Shown here: positions 30,300 to 43,890 of the stretch, piece after piece
Layout: each line of letters begins with the position of its first letter
Numbering within the stretch: the first letter of the stretch is position 1
NCBI GenBank assembly: GCA_947625135.1
Contig: CANQNE010000011.1
Location: forward strand, 370 to 64,369
Source: an uncultured Lachnospiraceae bacterium
GTDB taxonomy: Bacteria; Bacillota; Clostridia; Lachnospirales; Lachnospiraceae
Direction: 5' to 3'
Length of the DNA stretch: 64,000 nucleotides
Position numbers and translations under genes: made by a program
Notes under the pieces: generated by a model
Database searches by the model: none
What the model saw: the letters and a program-made list of their open reading frames with translations, nothing else
Told to the model about the DNA's origin: nothing

Positions 30300-31889
30300 T
30301 TGGCGGATTTGCATCATGAAATAGAAAAGAGAAGGACATTTGCGATCATTTCTCATCCTGACGCGGGAAAAACCACCCTGACGGAGAAATTTTTGCTGTA
30401 CGGCGGAGCCATCAATCTGGCCGGCTCCGTAAAGGGAAAGGCCACCGCCCGTCATGCGGTTTCCGACTGGATGGAGATCGAGAAGGAGAGAGGAATTTCT
30501 GTTACCTCCTCCGTGCTACAGTTTAATTACGACGGATATTGCATCAATATACTGGATACGCCAGGACATCAGGATTTTTCCGAGGATACCTACCGCACGC
30601 TGATGGCGGCGGACTCGGCGGTGATGGTCATCGATGCGTCAAAAGGTGTGGAGGCACAGACGAGGAAGCTGTTCAAAGTCTGCGTCATGCGCCACATTCC
30701 GATTTTTACGTTTATCAACAAGATGGATCGGGAGGCAAAGGATACCTTTGATCTTCTGGACGATATTGAAAAGGAGCTGGGTATTGCCACCTGCCCCGTG
30801 AACTGGCCGATCGGCTCCGGCAAGGAATTTAAGGGCGTTTATGACCGGCATAGCCGGGAAGTGCTTTTATTTTCCGATACGGAGCGGGGAACCAAAGAAG
30901 GACAGGCGCAGCGCATTTCCGTGGAAGATCCGGGCCTGTCTCAGGTGATCGGAGAGGAAGCGACAGAGCAGCTCGCAGAGGAGATCGAGCTGCTGGATGG
31001 CGCAAGTGCGGAGTTTGATATTGCACTGATCCGCAAGGGAGAGCTTTCCCCGGTGTTTTTCGGATCAGCGCTTACCAATTTCGGTGTGGAAACCTTTTTG
31101 GAACATTTTTTAAAGACGACCATGCCGCCCCTTCCCCGGATGTCGGATGAAGGAGAGGTGGATTCCTTCCGGGAGGACTTCAGTGCTTTTGTATTCAAAA
31201 TTCAGGCAAATATGAATAAAGCGCACAGAGACCGGATTGCCTTTATGCGGATCTGTTCCGGGATCTTTGACGCCAGTATGGAAGTATACCATGTGCAGAG
31301 CGGCAAGAAAATGCGGCTTTCTCAGCCCCAGCAGCTGATGGCGCAGGAGCGGAAGGTGATCAGCGAGGCGTATGCGGGAGATATCATCGGCGTATTTGAT
31401 CCGGGTATCTTTTCGATCGGCGACACCGTCTGTCTGCCGGGACATAAATTTGCCTATGAGGGTATCCCCACCTTTGCGCCGGAGCATTTTGCAAGGGTGC
31501 GTCAGGTGGATACCATGAAGCGGAAGCAGTTTGTAAAGGGGATCACCCAGATCGCGCAGGAGGGCGCCATTCAGATCTTTCAGGAGTTTCACACCGGCAT
31601 GGAGGAGATTATTGTGGGCGTTGTGGGCGTGCTGCAGTTCGATGTGCTGAAATACAGGCTGGAAAACGAATATAATGTAGAAATTATTCTGGAAAACCTG
31701 CCCTATGAGCATATTCGGTGGATCGAGAATAAGGATATTGATCTGGAAAGCCTCAGCGGTACGTCGGATATGAAAAAGATCAAGGATTTAAAAGACCGTC
31801 CCTTGCTTTTGTTTGTGAACAGCTGGAGCGTGGGTATGACGCTGGAGCGCAATCCGGATCTGGTGCTGTCAGAATTTGCGAGAAACTAA
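30300..31889 (+). CDS. prfC: Peptide chain release factor 3
   Basis: 529 aa, TTG start 7 nt after AGGAGGA. G1 SHPDAGKTT, DTPGHQDF, NKMD. Confidence 0.92.
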   Translation: MADLHHEIEKRRTFAIISHPDAGKTTLTEKFLLYGGAINLAGSVKGKATARHAVSDWMEIEKERGISVTSSVLQFNYDGYCINILDTPGHQDFSEDTYRTLMAADSAVMVIDASKGVEAQTRKLFKVCVMRHIPIFTFINKMDREAKDTFDLLDDIEKELGIATCPVNWPIGSGKEFKGVYDRHSREVLLFSDTERGTKEGQAQRISVEDPGLSQVIGEEATEQLAEEIELLDGASAEFDIALIRKGELSPVFFGSALTNFGVETFLEHFLKTTMPPLPRMSDEGEVDSFREDFSAFVFKIQANMNKAHRDRIAFMRICSGIFDASMEVYHVQSGKKMRLSQPQQLMAQERKVISEAYAGDIIGVFDPGIFSIGDTVCLPGHKFAYEGIPTFAPEHFARVRQVDTMKRKQFVKGITQIAQEGAIQIFQEFHTGMEEIIVGVVGVLQFDVLKYRLENEYNVEIILENLPYEHIRWIENKDIDLESLSGTSDMKKIKDLKDRPLLLFVNSWSVGMTLERNPDLVLSEFARN

Positions 31890-31900
31890 GGAGGAATTTA

Positions 31901-31936
31901 GTGTGAAAAATAAACTCGATATCTTATTTTTCACAC
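31901..31936 (+). terminator. Perfect 13-bp hairpin after prfC (no U-tract)
   Basis: GTGTGAAAAATAA-N10-TTATTTTTCACAC, 12 nt after the stop. It is followed by GGCAATTT, so it is atypical as an intrinsic terminator. Confidence 0.4.
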
Positions 31937-31938
31937 GG

Positions 31939-32046
31939 CAATTTGTGGTGGAGCGTCACAAATTGTTTTGATGGCAGATGAAAAATCGCATTCTCGATTT
32001 TATCATCGCCTCGTCGCGCAAACGCTCCGGAATGGAGATTAAAATG
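31939..32046 (+). promoter_or_regulatory. Conserved structured leader element, copy A (upstream of the GH28 gene)
   Basis: Hairpin CAATTTGTG-[GTGGAGCGT]-CACAAATTG, then TGATGGCAGATG, then ACGCTCCGGAATGGAGATTAAAATG. The loop GGAGCGT is the complement of ACGCTCC. Confidence 0.45.
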
Positions 32047-33318: not shown

Positions 33319-33448
33319 ACACAAGGGGCAGAAAGGCATTGCTTATAGAAGCTGGACAACGGCAACGGTCTATTCGCCGGATTGCGGCATACTCAACAAT
33401 GGATGCGCAATCATGTTTACATAGCTACATCGATAGGAACAACAAGCG

Positions 33449-33544
33449 AAAATAAATAAGCCTACCTTGTACTTGGCCGTGCAGGTAGGCTTATAACTTA
33501 CACTGGGGGCTAACCACCTTGTGGGCGGTTGCTTCCTTTTGCAT
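33449..33544 (-). ncRNA. Candidate small RNA or leaderless 17-codon micro-ORF
   Basis: Minus-strand TTGCAT, 17 nt, TATATT (33549-33577). About 95 nt downstream is the hairpin AAGCCTACCT...AGGTAGGCTT followed by ATTTATTTT. An internal stem AACCGCC/GGUGGUU pairs fully only in this orientation. Confidence 0.3.
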
Positions 33545-33661
33545 TTTTAATATATTACACCCGGTATAAGGATGCAAGTGATTTTTACCTCATTTTAGTT
33601 TATATAATTCTGTATATTACCTCTTGTGTCCTGCTTGTGTATTACCTGTGCCGTACCTGTA

Positions 33662-35707: not shown

Positions 35708-35900
35708 CGCAATTAAATAGGGAACAGTCAGGTGTCAGAGCAATGATTGTATGATTGGCTCTGGTGAAAAGGGAAACAGGTGTAAGTCCTGTGCGAACTC
35801 GTCACCGTAATCAAGGAGCAGAAGCTGATATATCACTGGGAAACTGGGAAGATGGCGGATGCGATGATCTTTAAGCCGGGAGACCTGCCTGATTGTTGTA
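35708..35900 (+). promoter_or_regulatory. Cobalamin (B12) riboswitch aptamer
   Basis: Hallmarks in order: AATAGGGAACAG, GGTGAAAAGGGAAAC, CGTCACCGTAA, CACTGGGAAACTGGGAAG, and the B12 box AGCCGGGAGACCTGCC (35874-35889). Confidence 0.85.
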
Positions 35901-35992
35901 CAGAAACGATTGTTTCAGACCACGAGTAACTGGTTGTACATAATGTACGGAAAATCCTGTCTGTGATTTTTCGTATGTTTCATTTGTGTGCG

Positions 35993-37393: not shown

Positions 37394-37446
37394 ACTAAGT
37401 AAAAAATCATACTGAGCGGAAACGTTCCGGAATGGAGATTATTATG
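37352..37446 (+). promoter_or_regulatory. Conserved leader element, copy B (degenerate, overlaps the CbiK-like 3' end)
   Basis: Hairpin CTGTATG-[TGGAG]-CATAC, GATGG, AAAAAATCATACT, then ACGTTCCGGAATGGAGATTATTATG. Confidence 0.35.
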
Positions 37447-43592: not shown

Positions 43593-43788
43593 CTCAGTTT
43601 CTCTCGGTACTTCGTTGTCCCCTATTATACGCTTTTGTCGTTTTTTCTGTCAAGAGCAGGCGGATTCCCCTTGTGTTTCTCAAAGGTTCATGCTATAGTT
43701 TTAACAGATTTCAAGAACTGTGCTGCGGAAGATAAAAACGGAAGTGGCAAGATGGAAAAATCGCACTGATACGCCGATTTTTCAATAG

Positions 43789-43890
43789 GGGATATTTGTG
43801 CCGGAGCGTCACAGATATCCCTGATGGCAGACGTAAACGGGAGGTTTGCGCGCCCATTCTGTAAAACGCTCCGGAATGGAGACAAAAATG
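43789..43890 (+). promoter_or_regulatory. Conserved structured leader element, copy C (upstream of coaX)
   Basis: Hairpin GGGATATTTGTG-[CCGGAGCGT]-CACAGATATCCC, then TGATGGCAGACG, then ACGCTCCGGAATGGAGACAAAAATG. Confidence 0.45.

Follow-up and report, generated by a model that had tools for sequence, protein, structure and literature searches.

REP2 of Neisseria (Parkhill 2000; Morelle 2003) and IR-A/IR-B of Borrelia plasmids are dispersed repeats of 120-150 bp that are present in tens of copies (Delihas 2011, PMC3184786). Both lack terminal inverted repeats, form internal stem-loops, carry a ribosome-binding site (RBS) and lie directly in front of ORFs that are not related to one another; for REP2, the description adds a promoter and an ATG (PMC3184786). 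Judging from these descriptions, Neisseria REP2, together with Borrelia IR-A/B, would be the closest known analogue of the Lachnospiraceae repeat that we report here. Like REP2, the Lachnospiraceae repeat is dispersed, has no terminal inverted repeats, forms stem-loops and places an RBS directly upstream of ORFs. However, its host belongs to a different phylum, and the likeness is one of description, with no sequence relation stated. The two also differ in that no convincing promoter is seen in the Lachnospiraceae repeat and that the ATG behind it seems to belong to the gene itself. Furthermore, it has three hairpins and a covariation-supported pseudoknot beside its Shine-Dalgarno sequence (SD), keeps a displaced old SD on its left, and is found in many genera.

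The repeat can also be compared with REP/BIME, ERIC, Correia and other structured intergenic repeats or MITEs, which are likewise small, non-autonomous, hairpin-forming and co-transcribed, and which can affect mRNA stability or translation. Unlike the Lachnospiraceae repeat, REP/BIME, ERIC and Correia elements do not lie at a fixed distance from a start codon and supply no SD, and most of them have terminal inverted repeats or a RAYT/transposase partner, whereas no partner was found for the Lachnospiraceae repeat. Mycobacterial interspersed repetitive units (MIRUs; Supply et al. 1997) are reportedly tandem units of 46-100 bp whose small ORFs extend across the stop codon of one neighbour and the start codon of the next. 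The resemblance here lies in the intercistronic position, the orientation with the operon and the preserved translation of flanking genes; in contrast to our repeat, MIRUs have neither a structured RNA core nor a fixed SD-N5-ATG end. Finally, bicistronic-design (BCD) and insulator RBS parts (Mutalik et al. 2013) are synthetic, reportedly engineered so that initiation becomes independent of gene context. The repeat is similar to BCD parts in having an upstream SD with a short leader frame and then a second SD at fixed spacing, but its leader frame is not conserved, and the RNA fold, rather than leader translation, appears to be the feature that is preserved.

The DNA that we analyzed is a 64,000-nt stretch (the window) of the 2.29-Mb genome of an uncultured Lachnospiraceae bacterium (G000). 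We consider it likely, with a probability of roughly 0.8, that the segment preceding coaX in this window is one instance of an RBS cassette that is mobile, folds by itself and is transcribed with the gene, and that belongs to a non-coding, high-copy family present in a subset of the Lachnospiraceae. A preliminary description had noted that three leaders in the window end in the same block. We found these blocks, ACG(C/T)TCCGGAATGGAGA, at positions 32022, 37422 and 43866, all on the + strand and each followed by N5-ATG. Dinucleotide-shuffled sequences are expected to contain 0.35 matches, and at least three matches occurred in 0 of 100 shuffles, which bears out the claim that the three blocks are beyond chance.

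The copy upstream of coaX had been placed at 43789-43890, an interval that holds only its 3' two-thirds. On the basis of nhmmer and covariance-model matches, the whole copy spans 43750-43887 (+) and is followed by the ATG at 43888. It is 76-78% identical to its nearest relatives and is, on this comparison, an old and diverged copy. Immediately to its left lies GGAAG (43740-43744, +), an SD-like remnant that is probably the former SD of coaX; the left-flank profile of the family has GGAG at -11 to -8. In another sampled genome, G001, AGGGA-N5-ATG stands directly before coaX. Upstream of the repeat, TGCTATAGT at 43691-43699 (+) is a likely extended -10 box of the predicted coaX promoter. The string catgctata(g/a)t is common to G001 and the window, and its distance to the coaX ATG is ~20 nt in G001 versus ~190 nt in the window, which places the repeat in the coaX 5' UTR. 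A perfect (12/12) sigma-70-type promoter, TTGACA-18-TATAAT, presumably serving a divergent coaBC-like gene, is located at 43624-43653 on the - strand, ~100 nt upstream of the repeat copy.

Within the coaX copy, folding and covariation delineate three hairpins, all on the + strand. P0, GAAAAATCG...CGATTTTTC, occupies 43755-43783, where the preliminary description had drawn an upstream hairpin, AAAAATCG/CGATTTTT. P1 occupies 43788-43822 and includes the hairpin GGGATATTTGTG/CACAGATATCCC (43789-43821) as originally described, with a loop ending in GGAGCGT; the full 9-nt loop, CCGGAGCGT, is 43801-43809. The conserved joining segment TGATGGCAGA, also correctly recognized at the outset as following the hairpin in both full copies, is found at 43822-43831 (alignment and uORF table), and P2, GCAGACGTAAAC...GTTTGCGCGC, at 43827-43853. 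The pseudoknot partner of the P1 loop is ACGCTCCGG at 43866-43874, for which 97% of cells are paired across 76 copies and compensation is seen between subfamilies. GGAGCGT is indeed the exact complement of ACGCTCC(GG), and the CTCC inside ACGCTCCGG could alternatively pair with the SD. The copy ends in the repeat's SD, a 5-nt spacer and the coaX start, GGAGA-CAAAA-ATG, at 43878-43890. This start, 43888, agrees with that of the G001 orthologue.

The second full copy lies before a GH28 gene (ATG 32044) at 31899-32043 (+), a site at which G001 has no copy. Its parts are P0 at 31901-31936, P1 at 31937-31967 (loop 31948-31956), P2 at 31970-32012 and the tail at 32022-32038, all on the + strand, and its P1 contains the hairpin CAATTTGTG/CACAAATTG (31939-31965), again with a loop ending in GGAGCGT, as first described. 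The stop codon TAA of the upstream gene (31887-31889), followed by GGAGG, is its left neighbour. The third copy, at 37400-37443 (+) before a lipoprotein gene (ATG 37444), is internally deleted: it keeps a P0 remnant, TAAAAAATCATACTGA (37400-37415), and the tail ACGTTCCGGAATGGAGA (37422-37438), and is likewise without a counterpart in G001. This tail copy stands at the second gene of an operon upstream of which we observed a cobalamin riboswitch (RF00174, 98 bits, 35713-35906, +). The longest-ORF rule starts GH28 at ATG 31978 and coaX at TTG 43846, both inside the repeat, while alignment with the G001 orthologues gives 32044 and 43888 as the true starts. For annotation, this means that gene callers tend to over-extend genes with repeat copies. 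Elsewhere in the window, a gene-free stretch of ~130 nt at 33425-33555 is conserved or repeated; it has no Rfam match at gathering thresholds, and at 82-90% identity it matches two places each in G001 and G002 as well as G016.

We estimate that G000 contains ~35 copies of the repeat (17-mer with up to 2 mismatches; 16 forward and 19 reverse), which a profile search divides into ~16 full copies, 9 without the first hairpin and ~10 consisting of the tail only. Nearly all of them keep the 3' end, so that SD-N5-ATG stands before unrelated genes, including ispF, atpD, coaX, glmS, gltB, ddl, parB, GH28, MATE, PduL and others (names read by eye from translations). Two degenerate copies in G000 (contigs C19, 14572-14687, and C9, 68623-68667) are missing the tail or all that follows P0 and still lie directly before an ATG, one as AAACTATCAGCT-ATG and the other as AGGGGGATTTTT-ATG. 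Among 160 copies taken from many genomes, 122 have a spacer of exactly 5 nt behind GGAGN, and in 153 the start codon is ATG. About half of the copies are intercistronic. It had been proposed that a dispersed repeat found mostly away from start codons would undermine the structural model; the element is indeed a dispersed repeat, yet it is almost always at start codons.

The identity of the downstream genes bears on the regulatory interpretation that had first been advanced, namely a translational riboswitch or a switch controlled by a protein or sRNA; the genes speak against a riboswitch and against a leader common to a coherent regulon. The 160 downstream proteins fall into 140 clusters, the largest of which comprises ABC-F ATPases (assigned by eye from sequence), with no recurrent transposase-like family. 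A leader belonging to one mobile gene was ruled out, there being no recurrent downstream family. Whereas a metabolite riboswitch would be expected to front a coherent gene set shared across species, the 140 clusters and the sharing of a copy by just 1 of 24 orthologues describe species-specific sites, and the interpretation fails on this point. Since the repeat fronts dozens of unrelated genes, the coaX leader is not a coaX-specific riboswitch, and the repeat is not a ligand-specific riboswitch. The preliminary description could match the element to no riboswitch class, and neither could we: an Rfam search of the window at gathering thresholds returned the cobalamin riboswitch and a tRNA only, and an E-value search of five copy-bearing loci returned nothing at the copies.

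A full copy is ~140-150 nt long and lies between the gene's original SD and its ATG, in the gene's orientation. In our alignment (A1), the 5' part consists of the SD-like purine run of the flank, 1-5 nt, and (T)AGT-NTG-AAAAAT, which opens P0; in typical copies the 5' arm of P0 begins with this NTG, 5-8 nt after the old SD. The middle part contains P1 with its loop CCGGAGCGU, then CUGAUGGCAGA, and then P2, the inner part of which is exchangeable and swaps between subfamilies. The 3' part runs through GCCCCGUCGCGUAA and ACGCUCCGG-AAU-GGAGA to N5 and the ATG. In typical copies, the TGA within TGATGGCAGA is a frame-0 stop 75 nt before the ATG. We also observed that some typical copies contain extra perfect mini-hairpins of 17-25 nt, nested at differing points: AAACGAAGTCCCTTCGTTT, AAGAACCGGAGGTTCTT and GGTAAACTTTGTTTACC, in copies L032, L033 and L039 of G001, L071, L073, L074 and L081 of G002, and L054 and L063 of G016. 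Each is specific to one genome, and together they give the impression that very small palindromes have inserted as a second layer.

We examined 76 copies from many species for covariation in P0, P1 and P2 and found 23 pairs that are changed on both sides, a number reached in 0 of 500 shuffles, with slid controls giving 6-13. In P0, 10 of 11 pairs have changed on both sides. Thus, the compensatory stem changes first noticed between two copies hold for the family. In the main subfamily, the helix between the P1 loop and the tail is 97% paired and varies through G.U wobble only; for this reason, we compared divergent subfamilies taken from six other genera. Their loop/tail pairs differ in sequence and are nevertheless complementary: UUCUGAGCGA/UCGCUCAGAA, GUCGGAGC/GCUCCGAC, CCGCAGGCGY/GCGUCUGCGG, UUCUGAGCAA/UUGCUCAGAA, CCGAAGCGU/ACGCUUCGG and UCGAAGC/GCUUCGA; the pair in alignment A1 is CCGGAGCGU/ACGCUCCGG. 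Compensatory changes at most helix positions therefore support the P1 loop-tail pseudoknot that had been put forward, in which the 9-10-nt loop of P1 pairs with a segment ending 3 nt upstream of the new SD. A search for further covarying tertiary pairs gave only noise. A local GGAGCG:CGCUCC hairpin is kept by short copies at atpD, C45, L043 and L119, but its frequency is not above shuffled expectation, and we therefore dropped it as a general claim.

The same tail segment can form a 4-bp CUCC:GGAG hairpin with the SD, and the preliminary description had seen in these mutually exclusive pairings a switch. The 4-bp hairpin is invariant in the main family, appears as CUCA:UGAG in one subfamily, a suggestive finding, and is absent from another; a switch is therefore possible, not shown. 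Such a switch would act on a large and shifting regulon, with a trans factor (protein or sRNA) or a physical signal toggling the tail between the P1 loop and the SD. Both alternative pairings do exist, one leaving the SD free and the other masking it, and one subfamily, UGAG, shows joint changes in loop (UGAGCG), tail (CGCUCA) and SD (UGAGG) that leave both pairings available, although this may have been a single evolutionary event. Against a switch, the anti-SD helix has only 4 bp versus 9-10 bp for the pseudoknot, it is missing from the CCGCAGGCG/GCGUCUGCGG subfamily, and the genes behind the copies have no relation to one another and are not the same in sister species. The 17-nt tail and unpaired segments such as UGAUGGCAGA and GCCCCGUCGCGUAA are very strongly conserved, beyond the apparent need of a passive cassette, which speaks for a switch and could mean that there is a trans-acting partner. 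GGA motifs are present in the SD and in two loops, that of P1 and that of CUCC-GGAAU-GGAG, so the earlier suggestion of a CsrA-type binding site had a basis in the motifs of the loop and the SD. However, we did not find CsrA (PF02599) in G000 (97% complete), G001 (97%) or G016 (99%), each of which has >20 copies; it is present in G088 and G103, and controls matched. A CsrA site was ruled out because these three carriers have no csrA gene, and their lack of it also weighs against a switch more generally. On balance, we regard a regulatory switch as improbable.

Returning to the mobile RBS cassette, we next consider its ends. On the left, conservation starts at TAGT-NTG, with a weaker SD-like GGAG at -11 to -8, 5-6 nt further left; on the right, it fades after GGAGA-TTA, the last two spacer bases being free. 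Comparisons of filled and empty sites show that the native SD is kept on the left, as with ttGGAGG in both alleles of one pair. The 10-15 nt to the left of the core resemble the 10-15 nt to the left of the same copy's ATG more than those of other copies (stratified permutation p ~0.001-0.003, over 5-15 nt), strikingly so in L237, L250, L245, L246, L137 and G001_L037. Both junctions have T-A at spacer positions 2-3, and head-to-tail junctions of the form ...GGAGATTAGT|GTGAAAAAT... occur. Together, the ends and flanks would fit insertion into, or recombination between, SD-spacer-start motifs. Since no base-exact filled/empty pair was found, the ends are placed to within 2-3 nt only. Look-up by exact protein returned four CoaX contigs, all with the copy, and look-up by flavodoxin returned one contig, also filled; another protein had no record. 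The lack of an exact empty allele in these look-ups reflects the rarity of the species in public assemblies.

These data also bear on whether the element might act purely at the DNA level, as a MITE, REP or IS200/IS605-derived element whose hairpins are read by a transposase in ssDNA, the RNA fold and SD being incidental. Copies that are dispersed, species-specific and near-identical would be expected of such an element, as would hairpin modules that come and go and the duplication-like likeness of the two flanks (p ~0.001-0.003). However, terminal inverted repeats are absent: the copies begin with TAGTGTGAAAAAT on the left and finish with GGAATGGAGATTA on the right, and neither is the inverse of the other. 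The Y1 (HUH) transposase PF01797 was not found in G000, G001 or G088, assemblies (MAGs) that may miss transposases, and an IS200/IS605 or RAYT partner was set aside given the lack of Y1_Tnp in these three carriers. IS630 was considered because TA is common to both junctions, and was rejected because DDE_3, present in 18 of 151 genomes, shows no association with the carriers. Furthermore, the ratio of G.U to A.C cells is 90:45 for the hairpins and 28:10 for the pseudoknot, as would fit selection acting on RNA of the sense strand. A covarying 9-10-bp long-range pairing beside the SD has no known role in transposition, and random insertion followed by selection would not yield exact 5-nt spacing in 76% of copies. 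We therefore hold a purely DNA-level element to be very improbable. Likewise, retro-mobilization in the manner of a SINE was considered because copies are 5'-truncated and 3'-anchored, and was rejected when no reverse transcriptase (PF00078, RVT_1) was found in G000 or G088, which have at least 20 copies each and, as MAGs, may miss genes.

The distribution of the repeat is patchy. A covariance-model scan for more copies located the family in 27 of 151 sampled Lachnospiraceae genera, often with 12 to at least 20 copies. Acetatifactor, Eisenbergiella, Kineothrix, Lachnospira, Cuneatibacter, Parablautia intestinalis D8-82 and Clostridium sp. MCC353 are among the named carriers, and the last two, which are cultured, have full copies. 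A 16-mer pattern searched in 16 genomes from the other families of the order gave a single match, with 1 mismatch. Of the repeat-bearing genes in G001, G002 and G016, 24 have a confident orthologue in G000 (at least 70% amino-acid identity), and only 1 of these 24 shares its copy. All three window sites lack the repeat in G001. One copy from G000 and one from G001 are 97% identical at non-orthologous sites, compared with 70-86% identity for DNA in synteny between these genomes. Phage or plasmid carriage was rejected, there being no match in PLSDB and, among 10 16-mer matches in IMG/VR, no full copy. A keyword search of the literature found nothing on such a repeat in the Lachnospiraceae, and the 13-nt tail motif is printed in no paper of the literature searched.

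Given that an old SD and an NTG lie at the left end, the functional unit could conceivably be a short uORF, with the old SD and the P0 NTG driving a leader peptide coupled to the gene, as in a natural counterpart of the bicistronic design. All full copies (85 of 85) have ATG, GTG or TTG at this position, with an SD-like run 5-8 nt before it, and a few uORFs extend through the entire repeat to end at an ATGA that overlaps the gene start. However, frame, length and peptide vary between subfamilies, with stops at -102, -75, -63, -25 or +1, or with the frame left open; a conserved leader peptide was ruled out because neither frame nor stop shows conservation. Covariation between the initial base of the NTG and its partner in P0 (GC 48, UA 11, AU 7) indicates that this base is kept as part of the stem. 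The coaX copy has TGG at this place, and its nearest ATG, 1 nt upstream, opens an ORF of just 5 codons. We consequently see hardly any likelihood that a uORF is the functional unit. In L032, L033 (first copy) and L039 of G001, the frame is shifted by a nested hairpin of 19 nt, so that reading from the upstream NTG continues through the repeat in frame with the gene, and ~52 residues would be added if this NTG were used.

How a mobile RBS cassette of this type might be tolerated can be outlined from its anatomy. The repeat would be transcribed with the gene; at coaX it would be part of the 5' UTR, and at GH28 it would separate two cistrons. A consensus scan for a promoter in the repeat found no good sigma-70-like site in the coaX copy and a 9/12 site in the GH28 copy. 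The repeat would then exchange the gene's RBS for its own extended SD, GGAAUGGAGA, followed by 5 nt and the ATG; we take GGAAUGGAGA to be an extended match to the 16S 3' end (the Firmicute anti-SD sequence). The pseudoknot would sequester the CUCC stretch that is able to mask the SD, and it may also insulate the SD from upstream RNA. P0 would pair and thereby bury the NTG that follows the orphaned old SD. Upstream reading would be ended by stop codons in all three frames; conserved stops are located at -75 (frame 0) and -25 (frame 2), and often at ATGA (frame 1). Jointly, these features would leave the host gene expressed, and the repeat could therefore spread at little cost, by a copy-and-paste route that appears to be aimed at translation-initiation regions. 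A more far-reaching proposal, which we offer as a doubtful one, is that this is a new transposase-free mobile element that copies itself between initiation regions via the SD-spacer-start motif, its pseudoknot being an evolved translation-setting device and possibly a switch. Recombination or annealing at such motifs would account for flanks that resemble direct repeats, for the fuzziness of the ends, for tandem arrays and for the precise placement.

If the mobile RBS cassette is correctly understood, it represents a natural, self-insulating part that could be useful in engineering Clostridia. With regard to the biology of mobile elements, the gap between SD and start codon would be targeted without a recognizable transposase, for which Neisseria REP2 offers a parallel. 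For the Lachnospiraceae themselves, it would mean that in many gut members of the family the RBS of 1-2% of genes is served by a mobile repeat, that the set of genes affected differs between sister species, and that arbitrary genes could come under one translation efficiency, or one control, through the leader that they share.
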